DNA of 64,000 nt from an uncultured Pelolinea sp. (GCA_964383575.1 CAYLHI010000001.1:18442-82441), one strand, 5' to 3'. Counted from the first letter of the stretch, positions 2,788 through 61,885 are shown. The notes: generated by a model not told the origin, from the sequence alone. A program made the numbers and translations.

Positions 2788-3831
2788 ATGAAAAAAACGA
2801 TCAGTAGAATAAATTTAATATTGGTGGTTTTATTGGCAGCAGCCGCCTGCCAACGGACCCCGGCTCTTCCCGCAAAAACAAGCGAACCGGTTCCAGAACA
2901 GGAATCAGCACCTGTCGTAATCGCATCGGAAAACGCGGCGACTCTTAAACAAGTTTATTCCGCATCAGTAAGCACCGGTTACATCAGCGCGAAATGGGCG
3001 GAGGACAGCACAGCAGTATGGATTATGGATTCCGAAAGCGCCGCTCTGTATGACAGTACGAGCGGTGAGAGAACCGCCCAATTCGCTCCGGGAGAGGACG
3101 TCGCCGTGTATGACGTGTCACCGGACGGGAAAACTGTGGCATATTCCCAGGATGGGTTAGAAATCCACTTATTTAATGTTTCCGCCCAGGCGGATATCCT
3201 GAGTATCGTACCTGATTTCCCCTTTTCAAACGCCTTTTTCAACACCGACGGCACCCTGCTCGGAACGGATTCGCTGGATGACATCAAGATCGTCCTGTGG
3301 GACACAGCCAGCGGCAAGGAAATGGGCAGTTTGCGCGGGTTTGGGACCGCGGCTCCCGTTTACAGCGCGATGTTTGGTATGGATGGAAAAACACTGCTGT
3401 GGTTCTCACGTGGGACCGTTCAGCCGATGGACATTGCCACGCAGGAAATGGGACCAACGCTTTCGCATGAGGATTTCGTAACCGCGAGGCAGATTTCCCC
3501 GGATGGAAAGGTTATCGCTACCACCGCGGCTGCCACGATCGGCGGAGAATTCCAACCGGTGCTGACGCTGTGGGACGCGGACAGCGGGGAAATCCTGCGG
3601 CAGAACACCATTCCGAGTTATTTCAGTTCAATCGCATTTTCTCCGGACAGCGGCCTGCTGGCAGCAGGCACGGAGAATGGGGTACTGATCTTCACCGTAC
3701 CCCGTGGCGACGAGGTCTTCCGTTTTGACAGCGCGGAAGTGGTCGCCAGCATCGCTTTCTCACCGGACGGGGTCAAGCTGATCACCTGCGGAGATGAAGG
3801 AACAATAAACATCTATGCAGTGAACGAATAA
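2788..3831 (+). CDS. lipoprotein with WD40/PD40-like beta-propeller repeats
   Basis: Lipobox 'LLAAAAC'. Repeated 'SPDGK/SPDS/SPDG' blades: VSPDGKTVAYS, ISPDGKVIAT, AFSPDSGLLAAG, AFSPDGVKLITCG. Confidence 0.7.
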   Translation: MKKTISRINLILVVLLAAAACQRTPALPAKTSEPVPEQESAPVVIASENAATLKQVYSASVSTGYISAKWAEDSTAVWIMDSESAALYDSTSGERTAQFAPGEDVAVYDVSPDGKTVAYSQDGLEIHLFNVSAQADILSIVPDFPFSNAFFNTDGTLLGTDSLDDIKIVLWDTASGKEMGSLRGFGTAAPVYSAMFGMDGKTLLWFSRGTVQPMDIATQEMGPTLSHEDFVTARQISPDGKVIATTAAATIGGEFQPVLTLWDADSGEILRQNTIPSYFSSIAFSPDSGLLAAGTENGVLIFTVPRGDEVFRFDSAEVVASIAFSPDGVKLITCGDEGTINIYAVNE

Positions 3832-3850
3832 ACTATCTGCATATCATATT

Positions 3851-3879
3851 AAACGCGCTCCGGTTGGAGCGCGTTTTTT
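3851..3879. terminator. bidirectional rho-independent terminator between convergent genes
   Basis: AAACGCGCTCC-GGTT-GGAGCGCGTTT is a perfect 11-bp stem, flanked by A-run/T-run. It abuts the polB stop codon (3878..3880). Confidence 0.7.
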
Positions 3880-6160
3880 ATTGACAACACGGTTCAGGAT
3901 ACAGCGCAGGATCAAGATGAATGACCGGGGGCGGACGACGGCGGCGCCATGTGCGCAGGGGCAGCCTGAGCTGGCAGCCAAGGTCAGCGCGCACCCAGAT
4001 AAGGAGCGCTTCCTCATCCAGCCCAAAAGGCTGGAGCAGATTAGCGGCGGCGCGGAGGATAAGTTCCTGGTAGTGGTCTACATCGACAGCAGCCGGATCG
4101 GGGGGATAGGGCAGGTCCCAGGCGTGCACGCCGGCTCCGCCGCGGATAAAGATAAGGCGCACGCGCTGCCCAGGGTAGACGGACTTACCTGCCGCCTGGA
4201 GCTGCATAACAGCCCGCGCGCCGGGAGAAGGCACCCGATAGCCAGCGAGCTGCTTGCTGAGCTTCTTGCCGACAAGTAAATCCTCAAGGGGCACACGACC
4301 GGTGCGCAGAGCATGCAGCCGGCGGCGGAGGATATCCACCGCTTCAGGCACCTGCCGCTGGAGATCAGCTGGGCTTTGGGCGCGCGCCAGGCAGCGCAGC
4401 ATCTCACACTGAGCATCAGCCACAAAAGGCGCCGCGTCGCGCCGGCGCAGATCAATGCCGCGCGCTTTAACGCTGCCATCCTGAAAAACGCCAAAGTAAC
4501 GGTTGGGCACCGGCAGGCGGTCATCCACGCGCGAGGGGAGAAAAACCACCCAGCGGTAAACGCCGTCCAGCGAGATGGGCAGGGAGGTGCGGGCGGCAAT
4601 CTCTTCCAGGAGAGGCTGAAAGTCATCAGGTTCACGGCAGCCGTCCTTCTGCACCCATAAGCCATCCACGTACATATGCAATACGCGGAAACCCATTTCT
4701 TCAGCGGCTTCCTTGGCGCGCAGGAGCGCCTCGCGCCCCCAGGTGGTAACGGCCTCATGGGCTTCTATGCGCCCGAAGCGGGCGTTCTTGTAGCCGAGAT
4801 AGCCGAAACAGGTCACCAGAAGCCATTTATGGGCTGATGAGCGCGCTTTATCCTTGCGCCGGCGCGGATCCCACTTCGGCAGGCTGAGGGCGCGCTGTTT
4901 GAGCGCGATACGCTTTTCAAGGAGGGGTTTAAGGGTGAGTGGCACCAGTCCGGGGGGATGGTCAGAACTGCCCAGGCGGTCGGGGAAGGGCGTCTCCGGA
5001 GAGATGTTGCTGCGCACCATGATAGAAGGATACATGGAGACAAAATCAATCATCCCGACATCAAAATGCAGTCCAGTGATAGGCTGGTAAACAAGCCCAC
5101 CCTGGTCGAAACGGATCAGGTCGAGGGCGGTCTTGGGGCGCTCAACCTGCTGTTTACGCCAGGGGACAAGGATATCGTTCCGCAGAGCGGTGGTAATCTG
5201 CATAGAAGAAATGCCCGTACCGGGCGACACGCGCGCGGCAATCTGAATGGGGAGAGCAGTGACACGCGCGGATTCGAGCGCGCCTTCCAGATCATAGCTC
5301 TGCCACATCATCGCATTGCGGCAGTCAATATGGCAGCGCCCGTAGAGGAGGATCTGCTGACCGCGGTAGATAATCTGCCCGTAGGAAAAGTAGGTACCCG
5401 CTTTCTTGTGCAGCACACCGCGCCCCACTTCGCGATTGAGGGGGAGGGGCAGGTTGTGCTTTTTAGCAAGCGACAGCAGGAGCGGGAGGAGCCAGGTGTC
5501 GCCGCTGACAGTCAGCAGGAGATCAGGGTCAACCCGCCGCAGCAGGGCGCGCAGGTTGATCAGCAGGGGGCGCTCCGGCTGGAGGGAGAAGCGGTATTTA
5601 TGCCCATCGTGGCGGGCGATGAGTACCTTGGGCTGGGCATGGGCCGGATCGCAGTCCGGTTTGAGAGCAAGCACACGCAGGGGCGCGCCGAGGGGATCCA
5701 GATCCCAGGGGGAATCCAGCACACGCAGTTCCCGCACGGTACCCTCATCGTCCGCGCTGATATAGCAGCGTGCCAGGGGAAAGGTACCCCAACGGGCAGC
5801 GTGGCGCAGGGTGATATTCAGATCAGCATCATAATAATCCAGCCCAGGAAAGCGGCGAGCAATCCGCTTAAAGAGGCGCGGCTGACAGATGGGAGCACTC
5901 ATTTCCACTGCCAGCAGAGTGAGGGGCTGATCATGGAACAGATCACGCCGTTGAGCGCGGTAGAGGCGCAGTTTCTCAGGCTGTGCCCGCAGGAAGCTCT
6001 GCAGAGCACGCAGCTGCTCAGGGTCACCCGCCGCATAGAACGTAACCGGAAAATCCTGCCGCAGGCGGCAGCGCTCCCCGTCATCGCCGATCAGCCAGAG
6101 AACAACGCCCTCACGGTCATCTTCGTAAAGGTCGAGCAGCCAGCCAACACGGTCAGGCAT
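3878..6160 (-). CDS. family-B DNA polymerase, exonuclease motifs degenerate (760 aa)
   Basis: Motif A 'IDFVSMYPSI'; motif-B-like 'KWLLVTCFGYLGY'; motif-C position 'VLHMYVDGLWV'; thumb 'VKARGIDLRRRD'. Start taken at MPDRVGWLLDLYEDD (ATG 6160..6158), overlapping the upstream ORF stop by 8 nt. The 925-aa ORF in the track is an out-of-context extension. Confidence 0.85.
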   Translation of the reverse strand: MPDRVGWLLDLYEDDREGVVLWLIGDDGERCRLRQDFPVTFYAAGDPEQLRALQSFLRAQPEKLRLYRAQRRDLFHDQPLTLLAVEMSAPICQPRLFKRIARRFPGLDYYDADLNITLRHAARWGTFPLARCYISADDEGTVRELRVLDSPWDLDPLGAPLRVLALKPDCDPAHAQPKVLIARHDGHKYRFSLQPERPLLINLRALLRRVDPDLLLTVSGDTWLLPLLLSLAKKHNLPLPLNREVGRGVLHKKAGTYFSYGQIIYRGQQILLYGRCHIDCRNAMMWQSYDLEGALESARVTALPIQIAARVSPGTGISSMQITTALRNDILVPWRKQQVERPKTALDLIRFDQGGLVYQPITGLHFDVGMIDFVSMYPSIMVRSNISPETPFPDRLGSSDHPPGLVPLTLKPLLEKRIALKQRALSLPKWDPRRRKDKARSSAHKWLLVTCFGYLGYKNARFGRIEAHEAVTTWGREALLRAKEAAEEMGFRVLHMYVDGLWVQKDGCREPDDFQPLLEEIAARTSLPISLDGVYRWVVFLPSRVDDRLPVPNRYFGVFQDGSVKARGIDLRRRDAAPFVADAQCEMLRCLARAQSPADLQRQVPEAVDILRRRLHALRTGRVPLEDLLVGKKLSKQLAGYRVPSPGARAVMQLQAAGKSVYPGQRVRLIFIRGGAGVHAWDLPYPPDPAAVDVDHYQELILRAAANLLQPFGLDEEALLIWVRADLGCQLRLPLRTWRRRRPPPVIHLDPALYPEPCCQ

Positions 6161-6419
6161 CCAGGTCTCCGGTAAGCTCGGCCATCTGCTGGCGCAGGCG
6201 CAGGATCTCCTTATGCTGTTCAAGCAGCATGGAGAGTAGAAAAGTCTCCATGGGGAGGGCGTGGGCGGCATAAGCAGCCGCGGAGAGATGCTGGCGGGCA
6301 GAGGCAAACAAATCATCAAGGGCAAGCTGGTCACCCCGGCGCAGGGCACGGCGGAAGCGAGAAAAGGCCTCCTGCTCCTGAATGAAAGCCTGGGTAATAG
6401 AAGGCAAAGTGCGCCCCAT
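6153..6419 (-). CDS. small helical protein of unknown function (88 aa), middle gene of the polB cassette
   Basis: ORF sits 3 nt after the upstream stop and overlaps the polB start by 8 nt. Its composition looks helical. No motif recognised. Confidence 0.55.
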   Translation of the reverse strand: MGRTLPSITQAFIQEQEAFSRFRRALRRGDQLALDDLFASARQHLSAAAYAAHALPMETFLLSMLLEQHKEILRLRQQMAELTGDLDA

Positions 6420-6422
6420 GAA

Positions 6423-6968
6423 TCAGGCCTCCTCTTCCCACAGTGCCGGCATTTTAGGGGCAGGCAGCGCTTCCAGCTGCCAGGAACCGCCGGCAGCCGC
6501 CTGGAGGGCATCCGCCAGCACTCCTTTTTCCGCACACAACAGGGCTGGCAGCTTAGCACTGACCACCACGGGGGCAAACTGGCTGAGGCGCTTGAGGTGG
6601 AGGATGCAGCCCGCCAGCAGGCGCTGGCTTTCGGCAAGCCGGACATTATCATCATAGAACGCTGCCAACAGGTCGATCACCAGAGTAGGCAGACCATCAG
6701 CGGGGGTTTCCGCCAGCAGTGCCGCCATCTGGCAGCAGGTAAAAGCGCGGGAGAGATGAATGCGCGCAAGCGCGCCGGCCAGGTCAGACGTGCAACGCCG
6801 GACAGCGCGCGCCACCGGGTAGACATTAAAGCGGTTGCCGCCATCCAGCACGCGCAGTTCGCCAGCAGCCGACAGCCGTGCAGAAAGCTCAAGCATGAAC
6901 GCGCTGGCAGCGTGCGGGGCGGTGAGCACCAGCAAACGGTTGGATAAAGGGAAGGTCAATGCGTCCAT
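6423..6968 (-). CDS. SulA/ImuA-like RecA-fold protein lacking a P-loop (181 aa)
   Basis: RecA/KaiC-like layout. The Walker-A position reads 'LVLTAPHAASAF' (no GxxxxGK[ST]) and there is a Walker-B-like 'LPTLVIDLLAAFYDD'. 'IHLSRAFTCCQMAALLAE...LVIDLLA' parallels E. coli SulA 'MQISQLSPCHTVESMVRA...VVIGWLA' (recalled from memory). Confidence 0.55.
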   Translation of the reverse strand: MDALTFPLSNRLLVLTAPHAASAFMLELSARLSAAGELRVLDGGNRFNVYPVARAVRRCTSDLAGALARIHLSRAFTCCQMAALLAETPADGLPTLVIDLLAAFYDDNVRLAESQRLLAGCILHLKRLSQFAPVVVSAKLPALLCAEKGVLADALQAAAGGSWQLEALPAPKMPALWEEEA

Positions 6969-6994
6969 ACCCTAATATTAGAACATTTATTCTA
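6969..6994 (-). promoter_or_regulatory. candidate LexA (SOS) box within a leaderless-type promoter of the polB cassette
   Basis: Minus strand reads TAGAATAAATGTTCTA-ATAT-TAGGGT-ATG. The 16-bp box (6979..6994) is one mismatch from the palindrome TAGAAC-N4-GTTCTA. The -10-like TAATAT (6980..6975) lies 6 nt before the ATG. The -35 is weak (ATGATG). Confidence 0.5.
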
Positions 6995-7146
6995 TTTCAT
7001 CATCCCCCACGCGCATCTGAAGTGTTTAAAAGAGGGGTGAAAAGCAGGTGAGCCAGATTTTGGGGTGCTGGATAGTGCTATCGGCAGCGGCCAGCGGATG
7101 CTTCCAACTTAGAAGTGAATTCAGAAATAATTAAATCGCGAATTTA

Positions 7147-8349
7147 TTATTCACCTAATTCTTGTGTGGTCTCATTAAATGTTGCACAAGGCTGGTTGCC
7201 GCAAGCAAGGTACTCCAATCTTTTTTGCACATCTTGTACTAAATGACCAGGCTCTACCCACAATCCGAATTCCGCTCCGGTGGCTTGATTGATCTTGTCT
7301 GGCTGCGCGATGTTGATAGTTACAAAATTAGAAATAATCACCAGAGATAATAATAAACCCAGCACCCATTTCTTATCAGAAAAAGCGATACCGATCAAGA
7401 TCATCCAGAAAGGAATTGTTGGTATCAAATACGCGGGTTCCGTTGGCAGCCGAAAATAAAATAATTCCATGCCTACGATTAACCCAATGGATAAAATACT
7501 AATCTGAAACACCTTGTTATTAATCTTTAACTTGCCTAAAATGCCTAATCGAACTAATCCCCACATGAGGATTAAAAAAGCCGGAGGGCTCCAAAAATAG
7601 ATGCTCTTATATATAAACCGACCTGTCCTTAGATATAAACTCCAAAATTCTTCCCCGCCAATAGAAGGGAAGAAAATATGTGTTTTCCATTCGGCAAAAG
7701 TGATCGGCGGTAAATAAAAAATTAAAGACAAAATTAGCATAATCGCACCAGACAGGAAAATGCGCCTTCTATTTTGCACCTCAAACATAAAAGCCCACAG
7801 CAGCACCAAACCTGCTACTAAAGCTGTTGTCAGCCGGCTGCCAACACCCATTGCCATGCTTATACCAGCGGTAACAAATTTTCCTTCCAAGAGCATCCAG
7901 AACCCTATCATTGTAAAACCCAGTGCAAACAAGTAATCCATGGTGCAGGTGGAATTGACCAGATAATAGGGATGCACCATCATGATAACAGCTAAAAATC
8001 GATAATTAGGCACATCGTATCGCTTACATATATATATAAATATTGCTAAAATCAGCAACGACATGCACAAACTGCCAAAATTGGTCAGAAAACTGCCGCC
8101 GATAATATTTAAGAAAAAAGTGATGGTTTCATAAACAAAGAATCCAGGCACGCGGGAGGGAACATAATCAAGTGTCTCGATAAAATTTTCACCTACCCAT
8201 AACACGTTATAAGAATCATAATCGCTGCCATAGCCGAGAAAAATGAAAGGAAAATAAATAAAAAAAGCTAAGAGCAAGATGTGTAAATCTTTAGATTGTT
8301 TTATGGATTTAATTGCTTTTTTGATTTGCAAACAGACCACCTTATCCAA
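7147..8349 (-). CDS. polytopic membrane protein, possible GT-C (ArnT/PMT-like) glycosyltransferase
   Basis: 400 aa with more than 10 hydrophobic segments, strongly AT-rich. Family assignment rests on overall architecture only. Confidence 0.4.
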   Translation of the reverse strand: MDKVVCLQIKKAIKSIKQSKDLHILLLAFFIYFPFIFLGYGSDYDSYNVLWVGENFIETLDYVPSRVPGFFVYETITFFLNIIGGSFLTNFGSLCMSLLILAIFIYICKRYDVPNYRFLAVIMMVHPYYLVNSTCTMDYLFALGFTMIGFWMLLEGKFVTAGISMAMGVGSRLTTALVAGLVLLWAFMFEVQNRRRIFLSGAIMLILSLIFYLPPITFAEWKTHIFFPSIGGEEFWSLYLRTGRFIYKSIYFWSPPAFLILMWGLVRLGILGKLKINNKVFQISILSIGLIVGMELFYFRLPTEPAYLIPTIPFWMILIGIAFSDKKWVLGLLLSLVIISNFVTINIAQPDKINQATGAEFGLWVEPGHLVQDVQKRLEYLACGNQPCATFNETTQELGE

Positions 8350-8691
8350 GAATAATTATTAGTTATGCAGTTATGTGACCGCCAAATGATTACGCAACAA
8401 TTTTTTTGTAAAATTGATCACAAATCCTTCCAATTTATTCTATCATTTGTCAGCCAGTCTCCATTCTCAAAAATAATATGCCGTATTCCCATTCCTCAAT
8501 AACCTCCATCAAATTAGCTTTAATCCACCGCAAGCATTGCTGCTCATTTGCTAAATTTAAAAAAATACATGGATGAGCAAAATAATTTGGGGGACTTGCT
8601 AATTTAGCAACCATTTCTTTTACCTTCGAGAGTAGTTTGAATTGTCAGGAAACACAGCAGGGATTTTCCAATTTTTTTTCCAGAATACCCC

Positions 8692-8769: not shown

Positions 8770-9753
8770 ATGAACTCGCAAAAATTAGAGCTTTCAAGCA
8801 GCATGCAGATGTACCTGGTCAAGATTAAACGTATGGAAAGTGAGTTTAATCCAGTACCTCTTTCCCTTCTCGCAGAATCTCTGCAGATTTCTCCGGTATC
8901 CGCTAATGAGATGTGCCGGAAACTAGATGAGATGGAGCTGATCCGGTACCAACCTTACAAAGGAGCCAGTTTATCTGATGAAGGGAATCTGCAAGCTGAA
9001 AAAATCTTAAGAAATCATCGGCTCTGGGAAGTTTTTCTGGTTGAAAATCTACATTTTGATTACCTGACAGCTCATCAAATGGCGGATGATCTGGAGCACG
9101 CAACCTCCAAAGAATTGGCTGATCAACTGGATGAATTTCTCGGCTGCCCAAAATTCAACCCGGAGGGAAAAGAGATACCTGCGGGAGACAAAGCCGGCCG
9201 CAATATACAAACGATGAAACTATCGGAAATGGGGGTTGGATCCGAAGGATATTATTTCAGTGATGAACTTGATGAAAATATAGCTGAATTTTTTTCAGAT
9301 GTAAATCTCAGAAAAGGAGAGCGGCTTAAGGTGCTTGGAAAAACCTCCAGCCAAATGATCATTCAAGCCGGAGATGAATTTATTCATCTCAGCAGAGAGA
9401 TTGCTGAAAAAATCGCAACTGCAAAGTTAGAAACCAACACATCCAATGACAGCAGAGACAGCGCTGTTAATAAAACCAACAAGGAGAAGGCTATGCAAGA
9501 AAAGATAATTAAAAAGAAAACATTGAAGGATTTAAAAATAGGCCAAACAGGTGTGGTTGTCCGTGTTAAAGGAAAGGGATCCATCAAACAGCGAATGATG
9601 GATATGGGACTGGTGCCCGGAAGCGAGGTCAAAGTAATCCGCGTTGCTCCATTGGGAGACCCGATTGAAATCATGATAAAGGGATATAACCTCTCGTTGC
9701 GTAAAAGCGAAGCCCAAGATATTGAGATTGAAACCAGCGGGGAGAATGAATGA
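8770..9753 (+). CDS. DtxR/MntR-family metal-dependent repressor with C-terminal FeoA (SH3-like) domain
   Basis: N-terminus 'MQMYLVKIKRM...LAESLQISPVSANEMCRKLDEMELIRYQPYKGASLSDEGNLQAEKILRNHRLWEVFLVENL' is the DtxR HTH plus dimerisation region. C-terminus 'LKIGQTGVVVRVKGKGSIKQRMMDMGLVPGSEVKVIRVAPLGDPIEI' is FeoA-like. Confidence 0.85.
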   Translation: MNSQKLELSSSMQMYLVKIKRMESEFNPVPLSLLAESLQISPVSANEMCRKLDEMELIRYQPYKGASLSDEGNLQAEKILRNHRLWEVFLVENLHFDYLTAHQMADDLEHATSKELADQLDEFLGCPKFNPEGKEIPAGDKAGRNIQTMKLSEMGVGSEGYYFSDELDENIAEFFSDVNLRKGERLKVLGKTSSQMIIQAGDEFIHLSREIAEKIATAKLETNTSNDSRDSAVNKTNKEKAMQEKIIKKKTLKDLKIGQTGVVVRVKGKGSIKQRMMDMGLVPGSEVKVIRVAPLGDPIEIMIKGYNLSLRKSEAQDIEIETSGENE

Positions 9754-10002: not shown

Positions 10003-10497
10003 ATGAAAGAATTTACAGTCGCACTTGCGGGAAACCCCAATTGCGGAAAAAGTACAATTTTTAATGTTCTCACCGGATCTCACCAGCATGTTGGAAATTG
10101 GCCGGGAAAAACTGTGGAAAAAAAGGAAGGGCATTTCACTCATAATGGTAAGAAGGTGAAGGTTGTGGATCTTCCGGGAACGTACAGTCTCTCAGCTTTT
10201 TCAATGGAAGAAATAATTGCCAGGGACTATATCCTTGATGAGCGGCCGGATATAGTCGTTGCGGTTGTGGATTCAACTAATCTTGAACGCAACTTATATC
10301 TGGCTGTACAACTGCTTGAACTTGGCGCGCGAGTGATTATAGATCTCAATATGAGTGATCTAGCAAAGTCTAACCGCATCGAAATTGACACCGATAAACT
10401 GGCCTTTGCGCTTCAATCCGAAATCATACAAACGATTGGGAGCAAAGGAGACGGTGTTGAGCAATTGAAAGATTTAATATCAACATATTATCAATAA
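10003..10497 (+). CDS. feoB: FeoB G-domain (stand-alone GTPase part of a split FeoB)
   Basis: 'ALAGNPNCGKSTIFNVLTG' (G1), 'GNWPGKTVEKKEG' and 'DLPGTYSL' (G3). Ends at the G-domain/helical-domain boundary. Confidence 0.85.
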   Translation: MKEFTVALAGNPNCGKSTIFNVLTGSHQHVGNWPGKTVEKKEGHFTHNGKKVKVVDLPGTYSLSAFSMEEIIARDYILDERPDIVVAVVDSTNLERNLYLAVQLLELGARVIIDLNMSDLAKSNRIEIDTDKLAFALQSEIIQTIGSKGDGVEQLKDLISTYYQ

Positions 10498-10507
10498 ATG
10501 GAGAGGA

Positions 10508-12238
10508 ATGATGATTACACAAACAATTGAGAAACGCAATTTCTCAATCCAATACGGCAAAGCAATAGAGGAAGAAATCAGCAAACTGCAAAGCGAAATC
10601 AAAAAAAACGAGCGCTTAACCTCGCGTTTTGAAAGCCGCTGGCTGGCAATCAAATTGATTGAAAGCGATCCAAACATCTCGGAAAAAATAACAGCAATAG
10701 AAGGCGGAGGCGAGGTGATTGAATTGTCAAAAAAATCCGTCGAGAAGCTTGAAAAAAGATTTTCCGATGATCTGGGTTCAATTTTTGCAGATAAACGGTA
10801 TGGATGGATTAACGGCCTGGTTAAAGAAATAGTTGACAAGAGCCAAGCTGACCGTATCTCGATGAGCGATCAGATCGATAAAATCGTCACGAACCGAATC
10901 CTTGGAATCCCGATTTTTCTAGCAATGATGTGGGCTGTCTTCAAATTCACAACCGATGGTGCCGGACCTTTTTTGGATTGGGTAGATGGTGTTATCGGCG
11001 GACCGATCACCAATTGGGTGGAGAGTTTAATCAACCTTGTAGATTTAGGCGGGACGTGGGTGGAGAGCCTTTTTATTGACGGCATAATCGCGGGCGTAGG
11101 CGGCGTGATGGTTTTTGTTCCCGTTATGCTTTCGCTATATTTTGCGCTGGCAATACTGGAGGATTCGGGTTATTTGGCCCGTGCCGCATTTGTTATGGAC
11201 CGCCTCATGCACAGTCTCGGACTGCATGGAAAAAGCTTTATATGTATGATTATTGGGTTTGGCTGCACTGTGCCGGCCGTTTATGCAACCCGCACACTTG
11301 AAAATGAAAAGGATAGGTTATTAACTGGACTGCTGGTTCCTTTTATGAGCTGCGGTGCACGTTTGCCAGTGTACGTGCTATTCGCATCCATCTTTTTCCC
11401 GCAGAACAGCAATACCGTCATTTTTCTACTGTATTTAACGGGCATTGTAGTAGCCATGATACTTGGTGTAATGTTGAGCGGAACACTTTTCAAAAACCGC
11501 GAACGCTCTCCTTTTGTTTTGGAACTTCCCCCATACCGCATGCCAACCCTGCGAAATATTTGGTTCTTGATGTGGGAGAGAACTTCTGCATTTGTGCACA
11601 AAGCTTTCTCATTTATTATGATTACCAGCATTATCATATGGCTTTTAATTGCCATTCCGGTGAATGGGGGCGCATTTGCTGAATCCGAAGTGGAAGACAG
11701 CAGTTTCGCTTACGTAAGCCGGGTAATTGCGCCGGTTTTCCAGCCCACTGGCTTCGCCAGCTGGCAGAACACGGGAGCCCTGGTGACCGGTTTCGTTGCC
11801 AAAGAAGTGGTTGTTGGGACGATGGGACAAATTTTCAAAGTTGAAGAGGCAGAAGAAGAAATGGCCACAACATCATTTTTTCAAGACCTTATCGAAGTTG
11901 TTTCCAGCTTTTTCTCCACAGTGGTGGATACCATAAAATCAATTCCGCTGATTATCGGTATAGACCTTTTTGAAAGTGAAGACGAAGATACAGGTACTGA
12001 ACTGATGGCTGTTGTTAAAGATCATTTCGAAGAAGTCAGCGGCGGCCACGGTGCACTGGCCAGCGTTGCTTTTATGGTGTTTATACTACTCTACACTCCC
12101 TGCATGGTTGCTGTTGCAGCCCAGCTGCAGGAATTTGGCGTAAAATGGGCAATCTTTGGAGCACTATTGGAATTGGTTGTAGCATATATCGCTTCTGTAA
12201 TCGTTTTCCAGGGAGGGTTGCTGTTAGGATTGGGGTAA
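10508..12238 (+). CDS. feoB: FeoB helical (GDI) plus membrane permease part of a split FeoB
   Basis: 'RWLAIKLIESDPNI' and 'ADKRYGWINGLVKEIV', followed by gate-motif-type TM segments. Own GGAGAGG RBS. Different reading frame from the G-domain ORF. Confidence 0.85.
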   Translation: MMITQTIEKRNFSIQYGKAIEEEISKLQSEIKKNERLTSRFESRWLAIKLIESDPNISEKITAIEGGGEVIELSKKSVEKLEKRFSDDLGSIFADKRYGWINGLVKEIVDKSQADRISMSDQIDKIVTNRILGIPIFLAMMWAVFKFTTDGAGPFLDWVDGVIGGPITNWVESLINLVDLGGTWVESLFIDGIIAGVGGVMVFVPVMLSLYFALAILEDSGYLARAAFVMDRLMHSLGLHGKSFICMIIGFGCTVPAVYATRTLENEKDRLLTGLLVPFMSCGARLPVYVLFASIFFPQNSNTVIFLLYLTGIVVAMILGVMLSGTLFKNRERSPFVLELPPYRMPTLRNIWFLMWERTSAFVHKAFSFIMITSIIIWLLIAIPVNGGAFAESEVEDSSFAYVSRVIAPVFQPTGFASWQNTGALVTGFVAKEVVVGTMGQIFKVEEAEEEMATTSFFQDLIEVVSSFFSTVVDTIKSIPLIIGIDLFESEDEDTGTELMAVVKDHFEEVSGGHGALASVAFMVFILLYTPCMVAVAAQLQEFGVKWAIFGALLELVVAYIASVIVFQGGLLLGLG

Positions 12239-56122: not shown

Positions 56123-57235
56123 TTAATCCTCCATCACCTTCTCAATTGCTCTTGAAAAGACCGCAACCATATTTTCGAGATTGATCTCCTGGCTGACAAT
56201 CCTGTATGAGGCGGCCCCTTTCATGCGCAGGATAGTTATATCCAACAGCGCTGATGCCAGCGTATCTTTCAGTGCCTGTATAGAATCATCGGCCAGCAGC
56301 CATCCATTTTCGTCCCGCACAAGGTCCTCCTGAGTGCCATCGCCGACACCCACAATAACCGGCAGCCCATAAGACATTGCTTCCTGAACAGCCAACCCGC
56401 CAGTTCCCGGCATGATAAACAGATCGGCTGAGTGTAAATGTTGACCTAATTCTGCGCCATGCTGGGCACCGTAGAATCGCGTCTGGGGATAGATTTCATT
56501 AGCCAGTTTTTCTAACACGGTCCGCCTGGGACCATCTCCTATTATTTTTAATAATGGCTGAACATCCGATGGTAATGCCGCGCAGGCGCGGATGAGCGTA
56601 TCTACGCGTTTACGTTCCTGCAAGCGGCCGACAAAAACCACAACTGGTTTATCACCCCTGAACACAGGAGGCCGCTCAGGCATTGGACGGGTTGGTCTGG
56701 GCGCGACCGCATTGGGAGCCATGAAAATGCGGTCCCTTGGAAATCCGAGCGCTTCATATTCACGCGCACCCTGGCTGCTGTAAGTAATCATCGCATCAAA
56801 TTTACGAATGAATCGCTTACGAACGGACATGCGCAGCACTGTTAAGCCGCCCTGTGTATTTGGAGATCCAAGTCCCCATCCAATCAATCTCCCATCCTTT
56901 TTTCGTATCCAATGCATTGCAGAAGTTGAAAGTAAATAGCGTGGGTTAGCTTCCATGATCAACACCCGCGGCTGCCAATCCTCTAACCATTCCACCAAAC
57001 CAGACTGCCAGCACAAGTAAAATGGGCCTTCGAAAAGATGATGGTTCTTACCCCACCACATTTTTGCGGTTTGAGGTACTACACCACCAGTCAGCGCTTC
57101 TCTTTTTCGGGGTTCACCAGCAAAAACACTGACATTGCTATCAAATTCATTTGCCAATGCGTCAAAAAACGGCACGCGGTATGATGGCAGCACCCGCTGC
57201 ATCACTCCGATCCGAATTTGGGCGGGTTCATTCAT
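56123..57235 (-). CDS. GT-B glycosyltransferase (family 4-like)
   Basis: 'RVLPSYRVPFFDAL', 'VFVGRLQERKRVD' and 'GGLAVQEAMSYGLPVIV'. The start overlaps the sbcC stop (ATGA). Confidence 0.8.
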   Translation of the reverse strand: MNEPAQIRIGVMQRVLPSYRVPFFDALANEFDSNVSVFAGEPRKREALTGGVVPQTAKMWWGKNHHLFEGPFYLCWQSGLVEWLEDWQPRVLIMEANPRYLLSTSAMHWIRKKDGRLIGWGLGSPNTQGGLTVLRMSVRKRFIRKFDAMITYSSQGAREYEALGFPRDRIFMAPNAVAPRPTRPMPERPPVFRGDKPVVVFVGRLQERKRVDTLIRACAALPSDVQPLLKIIGDGPRRTVLEKLANEIYPQTRFYGAQHGAELGQHLHSADLFIMPGTGGLAVQEAMSYGLPVIVGVGDGTQEDLVRDENGWLLADDSIQALKDTLASALLDITILRMKGAASYRIVSQEINLENMVAVFSRAIEKVMED

Positions 57236-59793
57236 GGGATCACCTCAACACTCGAGCTGGATGCGGTCTTAGTTACTTCAATCCTGGAGGGGAACGCGTC
57301 TTTTAATTCTTCAAGATGTGTGATAACAATGATCTTTTCAAAATCAGGATTAACTAAATTGATTGCCTCAACTAAACGCTGCCGCCCTTCAGCATCCTGA
57401 CTGCCAAAGCCCTCATCAATTACAAGCGTCTGAAGGCGCGCGCCGGACCGCTGTGCCAGAACACGGGAGAGCGCCAGGCGAATGGCAAAGTTTATCCGAA
57501 ATGCCTCACCGCCCGAGAACAATTCATATTCCCGGCTGCCTGCACTATCGCGGATGATAATGTCTAATGTCTGTTTCTTGTCCTCGCGTTTTTTATCACG
57601 ATATTCGCGCTGAGTTTCAAAGCTCACTGACATTTCGCCATTACTTAAACGATCCAATATCTCATTAGCCTTTGCCTCAATCTGCGGGAGCGACTGCTCG
57701 ATCAGCAATGCGGGGATGCCGTCTTTTCCGAACGCCACTTCCAACATTTTCAATTGGGCAACCTGAATGTTTTTTTCATTTATCTCATTTTCAATCTGTA
57801 CTTTTCTCTTGCGCAGAACCTTAAGCACATCAACGGCCTGTTTCGCACCGCCTACCCGTAAGCGTAGTTTATTTTCTTCCTTCCGAATATCACTGAGATC
57901 TTTCTCTAAACCAACAATATCTGGAAGCGTACGGCGCTGATCATTTACTTGCTTCTGTAATGATTCCTTCGAGATAACATTTTTATCCAAATTACTCCGC
58001 AGCTGCCCAATCTGTTTTTCATACTCATCAATTTCCCTGCGCAGACCTTTTTTTGCTGTTCGAGCCTGCTCCAACTCACGGAATTGATCCTCAATGCCTC
58101 GTAAACCAAGCTCTTCAGCTCTAATCTTTTCGTGTTTCTCTGGTGAATAATTTAACTCAGCAATTTTTTTCTCAAGGATCACCAATTCTTTTTTTGATTC
58201 TTCCTCCATCTTTGCCTTGTCCAACAAATCTGCAACCTCTTTCAGGCGTAGTTCATCCTTTTTTTCCCACTCCTCCACTTTTTTTGTTCCTTCTGCAATC
58301 TGCTGGGCAAGAATTCCAGTTTCACTTTGGAGAGTGGTAAGTTCATGGCGCAATTTTTTAAGTGAAACAATTTCCTTTTTTATACGGACAATATTGCTGG
58401 AACACTGCTCAATCCCGGTTTCATTTTCACGATAGAGATCACCAAGATCTTTACCTTCGATATTCAATTTATTGATCATTTCCTGCTTGTGCTCATCGCT
58501 CAGATTCTGACCGCAGAGCGGGCAGTCAGCACCTGGAGCATTCTCAAGATACCCAATTCGCTCTTTAAGTTCTTCCATCTTCACTTTAAGGTGATTGTTT
58601 TCCCCCATCCGATCTGCTTTTTTCTGTTTGAAATCATCTAATTCCACCTCTAATCGTTCAAAGTCCTTCAATTTTGACTGAATCCGTTCAATCTGGTCAG
58701 TTTTTTCTGAAAGTGATTTTTGATTATCTGGCTGCCTATTTTGGATAGCTGTGATCTCTTTTTGTTTTTGTCCCAAAGAGAGCCGTTCCTGGGTTAATCG
58801 TGCGGCTGCCGCCTGAATCTTCCCATTGATCGCCCCTTTTTTAAGCTTCAACTGATTATATTCCATCCCGACGGCATCCATACTGGAAAGCACCTTACGC
58901 ACATTTTGCCAGGATTGGTAATTCTCTTCGATCTCATCTGAATGCTGAAGGGTTTTTTCAACATCCGCCAGACTGACCTTACGGTTAGCAAGCAAATCTT
59001 GGGTTTCTTTCAACCTTGTTTCTATAGATGTAACCTGTTCTGCAAATAAACTGATCTTTTCTTCGTAAGCTTCCAACTGCTGAATCTGCCCCCGCACCTG
59101 CCCCAGATATTCATCTTTACTCTCCCTTAAACTGGTTGTTTTCTTTAGCAGCTCCTTAAGGTTTTTCAGCGTTGAGGAACGCTTGTCCTCTTCATTCAAT
59201 TCATCGATCACTTCCATCAACAAGGACTGCTGGATCTTAACCTCGTTTTGGATAACCCGGCGGCGGCGCGCGGTTTCATTCCGATAGGTTTCCCATTTTT
59301 CCAGTCCTAAGATGCTGCTGAGAATCTCTTTCCTCTTACCAGACGGCTGAACCGCGAACATATCAGCCTTCCCCTGTAAAAAGAAAGAGGCATTCACAAA
59401 AGTTTCATAATCGAGGTGCAGTACTTCTTTAATGCGGTCCTCTGTGGCACGAATACCTGCCTCCGTGAGCGGTTTCCAGTTTCCATCCGAACCCTTAACC
59501 TGGAATTCGAGGATGGTACCCTTGCCGCGATGTTTTGAACGTTCAACCCGATAGAGTTCATTCTCATAGCTAAACTCAAATACTACCTGGCAGCTATCCA
59601 TCCCGTTATTTATCAAAGCGTCATCGCTTCGGCGCGCTTTCCCAAACAGTGACCAGGTGATCGCGTCAAATAAAGTGGATTTCCCTGCGCCATTCGCGCC
59701 TGAAACACAAGCAACATTTATTTGGGAAAGATCAACGATGACCATATCCCGATACGAGAGAAATCCATGCAGGGTTAATTTTTGGGGAATCAT
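57232..59793 (-). CDS. sbcC: SbcC/Rad50-family ATPase
   Basis: Walker A 'GANGAGKSTLFDAI', long coiled coil, zinc hook 'CPLCGQ', signature 'FSGGEAFR', Walker B 'LVIDEGFGSQD'. Confidence 0.9.
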   Translation of the reverse strand: MIPQKLTLHGFLSYRDMVIVDLSQINVACVSGANGAGKSTLFDAITWSLFGKARRSDDALINNGMDSCQVVFEFSYENELYRVERSKHRGKGTILEFQVKGSDGNWKPLTEAGIRATEDRIKEVLHLDYETFVNASFFLQGKADMFAVQPSGKRKEILSSILGLEKWETYRNETARRRRVIQNEVKIQQSLLMEVIDELNEEDKRSSTLKNLKELLKKTTSLRESKDEYLGQVRGQIQQLEAYEEKISLFAEQVTSIETRLKETQDLLANRKVSLADVEKTLQHSDEIEENYQSWQNVRKVLSSMDAVGMEYNQLKLKKGAINGKIQAAAARLTQERLSLGQKQKEITAIQNRQPDNQKSLSEKTDQIERIQSKLKDFERLEVELDDFKQKKADRMGENNHLKVKMEELKERIGYLENAPGADCPLCGQNLSDEHKQEMINKLNIEGKDLGDLYRENETGIEQCSSNIVRIKKEIVSLKKLRHELTTLQSETGILAQQIAEGTKKVEEWEKKDELRLKEVADLLDKAKMEEESKKELVILEKKIAELNYSPEKHEKIRAEELGLRGIEDQFRELEQARTAKKGLRREIDEYEKQIGQLRSNLDKNVISKESLQKQVNDQRRTLPDIVGLEKDLSDIRKEENKLRLRVGGAKQAVDVLKVLRKRKVQIENEINEKNIQVAQLKMLEVAFGKDGIPALLIEQSLPQIEAKANEILDRLSNGEMSVSFETQREYRDKKREDKKQTLDIIIRDSAGSREYELFSGGEAFRINFAIRLALSRVLAQRSGARLQTLVIDEGFGSQDAEGRQRLVEAINLVNPDFEKIIVITHLEELKDAFPSRIEVTKTASSSSVEVIP

Positions 59794-61058
59794 TGCATGT
59801 GCTCCTCTCCATTTTCCGGGATGCCCACGCTCATTTCTACTGACTGAATAATATCTCCAGCCAGTTCGTTTAACACATTTATCTCATTGGTTTCTTGTGC
59901 AACTGTTTTCCAATATAACGCAAGCAGTTCACCGGATGAAAGGTTCGCAATCGCCATACCCCCGGGAAGCCGCAGCCGGGCTGGAGATAATGGGCGCCGA
60001 ATCAGATGGAATTCAAACGCAGCCTCTGCAGCGCGCCGGATGGCTGCTTCATCAATCATTGCTTCCCAATCTCTTGGGTAAGTCAATATTAATCGGAACA
60101 TAGCATCCTGTATCTCATCTGGTGGCGGGATCACTTTCATGATCTGTACCTGAACGCCCTCAGGATCATCCACGGTGACCGAGCAGCTGATAAATGGGCG
60201 CCCCACTAATTTAATCCATTTAAATTTTGTCGGCACCCCTTTTTCAATTTCCGCAATTACGAAAGTTTTTTCATCTTTAATCTCCCCAAAATCCACCCTT
60301 TCAATCGACCCCGGGTAGATCACTGGGGGATGCCCATCGGGATTGAGATTTTGGGCTTTATGGATATGCCCTAGCGCTACATAATCCAACCGCTTATCCT
60401 TTACCAGGGAAGCGGTTAGCACCAGATCCTTACCAAGCATAACGCTGCGTTCATTACCATAGGAAGCACCCTGCACGGATACATGGCTGGTGAGAACTGC
60501 TGGGAGCGCCGGATCAAGCTTTTCAAAAAAATCTTCAATTATTCTGGTTATCTGGCTTTCTAGCTGATCATTTATTTCATCTGCCGCGACATCTATGTCT
60601 GCGAGCGACGCCGCCAATCCAGAACGGTTCAGCCAAGGAATCCCAATAACCTGTATGGGAAGCCCATTCAAGTCATCAGGACCAAGCAAACAGGGCTTAC
60701 TGATAACGTGGATATGCGGCACTTGAAGCGTGTCAAATTCCTGTAGAGTATGTGCCCTACCGGCGGCAGGCGATACATCGTGATTGCCAACAACCAGTAA
60801 GGTTTGGATGCCCGCTTCTGATAAGCGTATCATTCTTTTTCCCCATTCACGCTGATAGGTTGGCGCAGGTGTGCGATCCCGGTACGCATCGCCGGCAAAA
60901 ATAACCAGATCAACCTTTTCTGATACCGCAGCATCCACGATCCTGTCCAGCGCGCGTAAAAAATCCAGCACGCGCATTGGAAGCCCGGTTTCCGGATCAC
61001 GCCGCCCATGGCGAGCAAGGTCAATATGCGCATCAGCAAAATGCAACAGTTTAATCAT
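59790..61058 (-). CDS. sbcD: SbcD/Mre11-family nuclease
   Basis: 'LLHFADAHID', 'AGDAYRD', 'VVGNHD' and 'ALGHIH'. 4-nt overlap with sbcC. Confidence 0.9.
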   Translation of the reverse strand: MIKLLHFADAHIDLARHGRRDPETGLPMRVLDFLRALDRIVDAAVSEKVDLVIFAGDAYRDRTPAPTYQREWGKRMIRLSEAGIQTLLVVGNHDVSPAAGRAHTLQEFDTLQVPHIHVISKPCLLGPDDLNGLPIQVIGIPWLNRSGLAASLADIDVAADEINDQLESQITRIIEDFFEKLDPALPAVLTSHVSVQGASYGNERSVMLGKDLVLTASLVKDKRLDYVALGHIHKAQNLNPDGHPPVIYPGSIERVDFGEIKDEKTFVIAEIEKGVPTKFKWIKLVGRPFISCSVTVDDPEGVQVQIMKVIPPPDEIQDAMFRLILTYPRDWEAMIDEAAIRRAAEAAFEFHLIRRPLSPARLRLPGGMAIANLSSGELLALYWKTVAQETNEINVLNELAGDIIQSVEMSVGIPENGEEHMQ

Positions 61059-61186
61059 CGCTTTTAGCCCAGCCTCCCATATACCATTATTTCTTATTTT
61101 ACTTGTTTGCTACCTCCAACATTGATCTATTTCTTACGAATCATTCAATTCTTTTAGGTATACTAATAGTATCAAAAGAGGAAAAA

Positions 61187-61885
61187 ATGTTCCCAATCCG
61201 AGACACCGTCCGTACCAGGTCTTTTCCATTCATTAACTGGATGATCATTATTTTAAATGGGCTTGTTTTTTTCTTGCTATCCAATCTTTCGCCCTCCGGG
61301 CTCGACCAATTTCTTGATAGTTTCGCGCTTATCCCAGCCCTCATTGATGTAAGTCAGCCATTTTCATTGATCCTATTCTTTACGCATATATGGATGCATG
61401 GGTCATTATTTCATTTGATCAGCAATATGTGGATGCTTTTCATTTTCGGTGATAATGTTGAAGATCGAATGGGTTCAGTGCGTTACTTATTATTCTATAT
61501 ACTGGGCGGAATCTTTGCCGGAATACTGCAGTTCTATTTCGCCGCTGATGCAACCATTCCGACTTTGGGCGCCAGCGGCGCGATTGCGGCTGTGATGGGT
61601 GCTTATTTTCTCTTTTTCCCCCATTCAAAAGTAATCACCTTTGTACCAATCTTCTTTTTTGGATGGTTTATCAATATACCTTCTTTAATCTTTCTGGGAA
61701 TATGGTTTGTCAGCCAGGTATTCAGTGGAGTGATCGAGTTAACCGCTGCCGCGGGCGGAGCCATGGGAGGTGTTGCCTGGTGGGCGCATATTGGCGGGTT
61801 TCTATTTGGATTGATCTTGGCAAATCCGTTTTGCACCGGCCGTAAAAAACGCCGCTCCTACACAGATGAATATTATCCCTGGTAG
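61187..61885 (+). CDS. rhomboid-family intramembrane serine protease
   Basis: 'HGSLFHLISNMWMLFIFG', catalytic 'GASGAIAAVMGAY' and 'WAHIGGFLFG'. Start set at MFPIRD after RBS AGAGGA. Confidence 0.85.
   Translation: MFPIRDTVRTRSFPFINWMIIILNGLVFFLLSNLSPSGLDQFLDSFALIPALIDVSQPFSLILFFTHIWMHGSLFHLISNMWMLFIFGDNVEDRMGSVRYLLFYILGGIFAGILQFYFAADATIPTLGASGAIAAVMGAYFLFFPHSKVITFVPIFFFGWFINIPSLIFLGIWFVSQVFSGVIELTAAAGGAMGGVAWWAHIGGFLFGLILANPFCTGRKKRRSYTDEYYPW

Follow-up and report, generated by a model that had tools for sequence, protein, structure and literature searches.

The window analysed here is a stretch of 64,000 nt from an uncultured Pelolinea sp. (GCA_964383575.1 CAYLHI010000001.1:18442-82441), in which positions are counted from the first letter. 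On its minus strand it carries polB2, a gene for a B-family DNA polymerase whose active-site motifs depart from the canonical forms. The gene is a member of the already described bacterial PolB2 (group G2) and does not represent a new kind of system. It stands last in a translationally coupled iRadA-PPB2-PolB2 operon. Aligned with solved polymerases, the protein is seen to have lost the 3′-5′ exonuclease active site and to have kept the catalytic residues of the polymerase site. The product is very probably a translesion polymerase of this group, encoded by an Anaerolineaceae (Pelolinea-like) chromosome, and would act as an SOS-induced, clamp-tethered extender. The operon and the box that adjoins its start comprise the following features.

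3878..6160, minus strand: polB2, 760-aa catalytic subunit of a B-family DNA polymerase, exonuclease-dead by alignment, PolC motif HMYVD
6153..6419, minus strand: ppb2, 88-aa small subunit; its N-terminal arm begins MGRTLPSITQAF and its stop overlaps the polB2 ATG by 8 nt
6423..6968, minus strand: iRadA, 181-aa Rad51/RadA-core protein with no Walker A and no N-terminal domain
6980..6993, minus strand: LexA-type box AGAATAAATGTTCT, of the GAAC-N4-GTTC class with one mismatch, 11 nt upstream of the iRadA ATG

An earlier, sequence-only reading of this DNA had described the polymerase gene. PPB2, iRadA and the LexA-type box are absent from it, and supply the functional context.

The polymerase and its active sites

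PolB2 matches Pfam PF00136 (3e-25) and, over residues 7-709, the full length of NCBIfam NF004416 (391 bits). The best solved relative is the PolB of Pyrobaculum calidifontis (5mdn; 1.6e-44, or 7e-60 with the family profile). An AlphaFold model based upon 36 sequences has a predicted local distance difference test score (pLDDT) of 84.7 and a predicted template-modelling score of 0.81, and in Foldseek it superimposes on archaeal PolBs (template-modelling score 0.70), as well as on Pol delta and E. coli Pol II, the scores spanning 0.59-0.73 (~820 aligned columns). By Pfam, NCBIfam and the model, the canonical B-family architecture is present, comprising N-terminal, exo-like, palm, fingers and thumb domains. 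The homologues are 745-776 aa long and begin at the same N-terminus, GWLLDLYE, so that the start at 6160 in the sequence-only reading is correct. A longer open reading frame (ORF) of 925 aa (3878-6655) was rejected; the 165 residues at its N-terminus run across ppb2 and iRadA in a different frame, and its lack of stops reflects the 62% GC of a region where stop codons are scarce.

The translation of 3878-6160 on the minus strand contains each of the six peptides that the sequence-only reading had quoted. Its motifs had been assigned by eye and were said to be possibly offset; phmmer and profile alignments to two solved archaeal PolBs (5mdn and 4fm2) confirm the placement and define the positions below. 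All but the last are given with minus-strand coordinates.

5648..5677: Exo I region RVLALKPDCD, residues 162-171; DxE replaced by K167-P-D169 in the alignment to FDIE of 5mdn
5474..5521: Exo II region LLLTVSGDTWLLPLLL, residues 214-229; NxxxFD replaced by S-G-D-T-W-L
5021..5050: PolA motif IDFVSMYPSI, residues 371-380; catalytic D372 and Y377
4790..4828: PolB motif KWLLVTCFGYLGY, residues 445-457; K445 kept, Asn to Val and Tyr to Phe
4652..4684: PolC motif VLHMYVDGLWV, residues 493-503; HxxxD with catalytic D499
Thumb segment KARGIDLRRRD, residues 565-575; RGleivRRD of the solved PolB pairs with RGidlRRRD

At the Exo I position the FDIE of the solved PolB pairs with LKPD, placing K167 where the Asp should be and D169 at the position of the Glu. 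At Exo II NsngFD pairs with SgdtWL, and the Asp is replaced by L224. The acidic ligands of both motifs had been called unrecognisable, and the aligned KxD and SxxxWL bear this out. The sequence alignments skip residues 248-295, and the fate of Exo III was judged from the absence of YxxxD together with a deficit in length. A motif scan of the protein finds no YxxxD beyond residue 137, and the segment between Exo II and the palm contains 48 residues compared with 93 in P. abyssi PolB (~45 shorter); Exo III is therefore also taken to be missing. An alignment recovering intact DxE, NxxxFD and YxxxD would have spoken for a working exonuclease, and none of the three was recovered. As aligned, the 3′-5′ exonuclease active site is thus absent from PolB2. 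With three or more of the four Exo carboxylates lost, the enzyme would not proofread, as had been proposed, and this matches the published PolB2 family.

The polymerase site presents a different picture. Motif A is intact, with DFsSMYP of the solved PolB paired with DFvSMYP. In motif B KvmaNamYG pairs with KwllVtcFG, so that the lysine (K445) is kept while Asn and Tyr are exchanged. In motif C DTDS pairs with YVDG; the first Asp of DxD is replaced by Tyr and the second, D499, is kept, such that H495-M-Y-V-D499 conforms to HxxxD. The thumb segment is canonical. In each of these four respects the sequence-only reading was accurate. The KxY element, kkRY in the solved PolB, pairs with pnRY.

Conservation was assessed in a set of 116 sequences, comprising the window PolB2 and 115 homologues of 59-94% identity. 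D372, Y377 and K445 are invariant or nearly so. The substituted positions are equally constant: KWLLVTCFGYLGY is conserved in 115 of the 116, Y497-V498-D499 in 115-116 (Y497 in 115, D499 in all), H495 in 110 and G220-D-T-W-L of the Exo II region in 115-116. At the Exo I position 40 of the 116 read E-P-D. Being near-invariant in 115 homologues, the substitutions are read as selected, and the term 'degenerate' that had been applied to the motifs does not fit them. From the alignment, the altered motifs of PolB2 are a conserved clade signature under purifying selection rather than the result of decay.

The same features define PolB2 in the literature, where the Exo residues are lost and HxxxD replaces YxDTD (PMC8764526). 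Horizontal transfer of archaeal PolB2 gave rise to the bacterial clade G2 (PMC11791011; PMC12926913), and the published phylogeny suggests one ancient archaea-to-bacteria event (PMC11791011). By BLASTP the window protein is 33% identical to Dpo2 of Sulfolobus islandicus (130 bits, 238 aa, E 4e-37) over a region that includes motifs A-C. The two proteins have KW[IL]LV..FGYLGY and HxxxD in common, motif B of Dpo2 being KWILVASFGYLGY. With the segment following motif B included, KWLLVTCFGYLGYKNARFGRIEAHE is far closer to KWILVASFGYLGYRNSLFGKIEAYE of Dpo2 than to KVMANAMYGYLGWVGARWYKKEVAE of 5mdn, and in pairwise comparison the catalytic core resembles that of characterised PolB2 more than those of the other PolB groups. 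The Pol II models of NCBIfam score low against the window protein, with 49 (NF004421), 22 (NF004422) and 17 bits (NF004420) against cut-offs of 570-1435. Anaerolineaceae entries with identical KWLLVTCFGYLGY and HMYVD[AG] strings are listed under operon class '1a (iRadA-PPB2-PolB2)' in the supplement of PMC11791011, where Pelolinea, Bellilinea and Ornatilinea operons are also catalogued.

Dpo2 of S. islandicus and S. solfataricus is a robust polymerase without 3′-5′ exonuclease activity that extends mismatches and lesions (PMC8764526). On undamaged DNA it is accurate; opposite lesions it inserts poorly, and it efficiently extends mismatched or lesion-paired termini (PMC8764526). Its activity equals that of the replicase Dpo1, and according to structural work cited in the same paper only the second Asp of motif C ligates metal (PMC8764526). 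It is described as damage-induced (PMC8764526; PMC7390963). By analogy with active Dpo2, and given the retention of D372, D499, H495 and K445, PolB2 would still polymerise, in agreement with the sequence-only reading. The loss of Asn and Tyr from motif B, in common with Dpo2, may relax minor-groove checking of the primer terminus.

The operon, its clamp contact and its control

The stop of ppb2 overlaps the start of polB2, and the iRadA and PPB2 genes are 3 nt apart. The same order, iRadA-PPB2-PolB2, is seen in ~67 of 80 related genomes, and is the sole order reported in bacteria (PMC11791011). In the published models PolB2, one iRadA and three PPB2 subunits form a heteropentamer, and Anaerolineae operons are among those modelled (PMC11791011).

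PPB2 starts MGRTLPSIT, and MGRT, P6, S7, I8 and T9 are invariant in a set of 121 sequences (the window protein and 120 homologues). MGRT is the defining N-terminal arm of PPB2 (PMC11791011), a family (arCOG07300 / PF26485) of small proteins of ~90 aa that is described as having a trimer-forming three-helix fold. All 120 homologues carry the precomputed label PF26485, and an hhalign comparison of the family profile with S. islandicus PPB2 gives E 3.6e-5 over residues 1-25. Local scans of Pfam and NCBIfam gave no match for either PPB2 or iRadA. The iRadA family profile matches RadA (2e-6), and also DMC1 and Rad51, in the Protein Data Bank (PDB). The iRadA model (pLDDT 85.9) is matched by Foldseek to RAD51 paralogues, DMC1 and RadA (E ~1e-6, TMq 0.62-0.71). 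At the position of the P-loop, following the strand 12-16, the protein reads TAPHAASA and lacks GK[ST], and this is conserved. A RadA/Rad51 core that lacks both the N-terminal domain and the P-loop residues is what defines iRadA.

In three related loci (L018, L022 and L024) tblastn with the window proteins finds no iRadA or PPB2 in the 6 kb upstream of PolB2; the two genes may have diverged, been displaced or been lost there.

Two segments bear upon a contact with the beta-clamp.

3956..3973, minus strand: candidate beta-clamp hexapeptide QLRLPL, PolB2 residues 730-735, in a disordered C-terminal tail
6438..6449, minus strand: P-A-L-W, iRadA residues 174-177, a clamp-motif remnant without Gln, identified from column statistics; relatives have Q[LM]xL[WFL]

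One form of the beta-clamp motif is QLxLxL, which QLRLPL resembles. The tail of PolB2 has pLDDT < 50; over half of the 116 homologues share the consensus G-x-Q-L-x-L-P-L there, and the nearest loci (L001, L002, L008 and L020) have it too. The window iRadA ends KMPALWEEEA. A C-terminal Q-x-x-L-[FLW] is found in iRadA of 30 of 67 related loci; the window protein lacks the Gln and so has no such motif. For Anaerolineae iRadA the strings QMELW, QLVLW and QLPLW have been given (PMC11791011 supplement), and the clamp motif is reported on PolB2 or on iRadA, seldom on both (PMC11791011). QLRLPL on PolB2 beside an iRadA without Gln fits this either/or pattern, and the clamp contact in this lineage is probably made by QLRLPL of the PolB2 tail.

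The operon is likely to be under SOS control, to judge from the upstream DNA. The consensus GAAC-N4-GTTC is presumably the LexA site of Chloroflexi (Fernandez de Henestrosa et al. 2002, J Bacteriol), and a literature search gave no confirmation. Perfect copies lie within 150 nt upstream of iRadA in 13 of 67 related loci, compared with 3.4% of 949 control upstream regions (p 3e-7), and thus are enriched. In the three closest loci a one-mismatch box is located at the same offset (-24) as that of the window. Over the whole window one-mismatch sites number 19 against 19.8 expected, which is the chance frequency, so that the window box taken alone is not significant. The gene lexA is reported to be enriched near bacterial polB2 (PMC11791011).

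A further site, GAAAAAATGTTC at 61181-61192, is likewise one mismatch from GAAC-N4-GTTC. It lies ~120 nt upstream of an operon of sbcD (59790-61058, minus strand) and sbcC (57232-59793, minus strand), and may be a second SOS-type box, bearing in mind the chance frequency of such sites window-wide.

Proposed function, related systems and alternative explanations

By homology, PolB2 would be a catalytically active extender that forms a complex with its partners, uses the clamp and is induced in the SOS response. DNA damage would relieve LexA repression at the box adjoining the operon start, whereupon the three proteins would be made together. PolB2 would bind one iRadA, an ATPase-dead Rad51/RadA core, and a trimer of PPB2, with the MGRT arm of one PPB2 inserted near the polymerase active site. 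The beta-clamp would bring the complex to a stalled primer end, probably via QLRLPL, and mismatched or lesion-paired primer termini would then be extended with D372 and D499 as metal ligands. H495 may make up for the first Asp that motif C lacks (PMC8764526).

The closest counterpart is the published bacterial G2 operon (Timinskas, Timinskas & Venclovas 2025, PMC11791011; Kazlauskas et al. 2020; PMC12926913). It has the same gene order and tight coupling, a dead exonuclease, YVD in place of DTD, an MGRT-armed PPB2, an iRadA without ATPase motif and N-terminal domain, and a clamp motif on one partner. The window locus differs in having no adjoining SRAP, lexA or DUF72 gene; its clamp-type motif is on PolB2 (QLRLPL) while iRadA keeps xPxLW, and the D(K/R) motif reads DQ. 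The only PolB2 to have been experimentally characterised, Sulfolobus Dpo2, likewise lacks the Exo residues and is partnered by PPB2 (MGRT) and iRadA, in this case in the gene order PPB2-PolB2-iRadA. Published work describes Dpo2 as the smallest of the PolB2 enzymes, its exo domain being more decayed, whereas the 760-aa window protein has a fuller exo-like domain. Archaeal PolB2 is associated with PCNA and Orc1/Cdc6-type damage regulation, in contrast to the beta-clamp and LexA of the bacterial systems (PMC11791011).

More distant parallels are found in three other damage-response polymerases. The Pol V mutasome of E. coli (UmuD′2C-RecA) is analogous in joining a translesion synthesis polymerase to a recombinase-family protein via an oligomerisation-like motif, and in its small subunit with an N-terminal arm reaching the active site, its SOS control and its use of the clamp (PMC11791011). 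It differs in that the catalytic subunit belongs to the Y family, RecA is an active recombinase and the UmuD′ dimer is unrelated to PPB2. Pol zeta (Rev3-Rev7-Pol31-Pol32) is also a B-family, multisubunit, damage-induced extender of distorted termini with an inactivated exonuclease. It is not orthologous and its accessory subunits are unrelated, and no Rev3 chain is among the sequence matches of PolB2 in the PDB. The sequence-only reading had proposed translesion or error-prone synthesis as in Pol zeta. The proposed translesion role and the parallel are supported by the literature on the family, the latter having been drawn by the authors of the mutasome paper (PMC11791011); in view of the archaeal enzyme's accuracy on undamaged DNA, 'extender' is more exact than 'error-prone'. 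E. coli Pol II (G1) resembles PolB2 as an SOS-inducible, clamp-binding, extender-like B-family enzyme, but it is a single subunit with an intact DEDDy exonuclease where PolB2 is without the Exo residues.

Several observations weigh against an SOS-induced, clamp-tethered extender. The functional claims derive wholly from Sulfolobales enzymes, which are only ~33% identical to the window protein, and so hold by analogy. KxY is N553-R-Y, in all 116 sequences, and motif B lacks the Asn and Tyr that in other PolBs contact the nascent pair; in view of these replacements the activity of PolB2 may be lowered or changed. The NF004416 score of 391 bits lies below the cut-off of that model (516). The published D(K/R) motif, in a loop before motif A that contacts the PPB2 arm (PMC11791011), here reads D352-Q353 (F-D-Q-G-G, compared with A-D-K-G-G in Dpo2); within the clade D352 does not vary and conservation of Q353 is at least 90%, so that the Asp is kept and the basic residue is not. 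The iRadA profile gives no significant match to S. islandicus iRadA (hhalign E 0.2), and the two proteins appear linked by modelled fold and gene position only. The mismatch of the window box falls in a core position (GAAT for GAAC, compared with AGAAC-N4-GTTCT), 47 of the 67 related loci have no box within 150 nt, and lexA was not found among the 33 window ORFs scanned.

Some of the same replacements could be taken to mean that catalysis has been lost, and that the protein serves as a structural or DNA-binding scaffold. This is the older prediction for PolB2, made from the missing first Asp of DxD, and the family has long been annotated as inactivated (PMC8764526; PMC11791011). Tyr for the first Asp of DTD, the altered motif B, NRY for KxY and the dead exonuclease site are all in keeping with such a pseudo-polymerase. 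However, a pseudo-polymerase is expected to have lost both catalytic aspartates, and D372 and D499 are both present; along with K445, Y377 and H495 they are invariant or nearly so. Moreover Dpo2, which also has HxxxD and KW[IL]LV..FGYLGY, is as active as Dpo1, and in the structural work cited with it only the second Asp ligates metal (PMC8764526). Loss of catalysis is accordingly considered very improbable. It is harder still to credit the opposite idea, that PolB2 is a divergent Pol II-like or replicative PolB that proofreads by means of non-canonical residues. D169 and D171 lie near the Exo I position, where the 40 homologues mentioned above have E-P-D. Against this, the Asp of Exo II has become an invariant Leu, YxxxD is missing, the Pol II models remain far below their cut-offs, and archaeal PolB2 has no detectable exonuclease (PMC8764526).

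The third alternative concerns the origin of the locus rather than the enzyme: the GC-rich block of three genes could be cargo of a mobile element or virus, a laterally moving replicative or anti-phage cassette with no chromosomal SOS function. The operon is richer in GC than its flanks, third codon positions included, in 39 of 39 related Anaerolineae loci (those with adequate flanks); PHROG families of unknown function are matched by both PPB2 and iRadA, a PPB2 gene stands alone in a phage contig, and the flanking genes are common only to the closest relative or relatives. Yet there is no integrase, repeat or phage gene at the flanks. Housekeeping genes surround it (hydrogenase small subunit, feoAB, recO, glmU-like, opp and rpoD), and synteny is kept on both sides in the nearest genome (L008). 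The 2.9 million viral contigs of IMG/VR gave just 2 PolB2 and 3 PPB2 matches. PADLOC gave no real defence match, and the phylogeny suggests a single ancient transfer from archaea to bacteria (PMC11791011). Mobile cargo is therefore very improbable. The one PADLOC match, to a 'homing endonuclease' model, involves the C-terminal 260 positions of that model and was set aside as not defence; the model presumably contains an intein-bearing PolB. A chromosomal, SOS-induced extender polymerase is thus preferred to each of these alternatives.

Surroundings of the operon and significance

The GC content of the operon (3878-6968) is 61.8%, compared with 46.5% for 7000-64000 of the window; here and in the related loci the excess over the flanks amounts to about 10-15 points. 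GC fractions at third codon positions are 0.66-0.70 against ~0.50, and those at first positions 0.71-0.72 against ~0.55. Across the 39 related loci the operon averages 61% and the flanks 51%, and the excess persists across lineages in which PolB2 is 53-91% identical to the window protein. It may have arisen from lateral exchange, from biased gene conversion, or from codon or amino-acid selection.

The lone PPB2 is encoded in the phage contig IMGVR_UViG_3300048599_000711 (L083:10001-10273, plus strand). It is a full-length protein of 90 aa that begins MGRTMPSITQSF, with an intact MGRT arm, 70% identity to the window PPB2 and a phage-like GC content of 0.505. The contig has genes for a terminase large subunit (6536-8356), a portal (5082-6488), ParB and a primase, and no PolB2 or iRadA in the 20 kb covered. 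The PHROGs matched by the window PPB2 and iRadA are phrog_26583, phrog_30126 and phrog_16666. It is conceivable, if doubtful, that the cassette is a compositionally distinct module repeatedly exchanged in Anaerolineae and exploited by phages, in which case a lone phage PPB2 could join the host PolB2-iRadA and tune mutagenesis during infection or induction.

To the left of the operon the features are as follows.

3851..3876, no strand assigned: terminator-like hairpin with a perfect 11-bp GC-rich stem, 2 nt after the polB2 stop
2788-3831, plus strand: WD40-repeat lipoprotein gene
1153-2763: 536-aa secreted protein with no Pfam match
132-1109: hydrogenase small-subunit-like gene

The hairpin separates polB2 from the convergent WD40-repeat lipoprotein gene and is likely to be a terminator. 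It has the T-tract of a strong terminator for the plus strand only, as on the minus strand just TTT follows the stem. The three genes have a GC content of 0.54, compared with 0.465 for the rest of the window, and the block is syntenic in the nearest genome (L008). On the other side of the operon feoB is seemingly in two pieces, an ORF of 164 aa for the G domain (10003-10497) and one of 576 aa for the membrane part (10508-12238), both downstream of the gene for a DtxR-FeoA fusion (8770-9753). The division may be natural or due to a frameshift.

By this analysis, what looks like a broken polymerase is an ordinary PolB2 of the family already described. PolB2 operons are widespread in the Anaerolineae, where at least 589 species-level genomes have the KWLLVTCF subclade. 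Cultivable carriers have been identified in Leptolinea tardivitalis and Levilinea saccharolytica, which are possible material for the study of the bacterial members. No multisubunit B-family translesion polymerase other than PolB2 is known from prokaryotes, and the family parallels both Pol V and Pol zeta.

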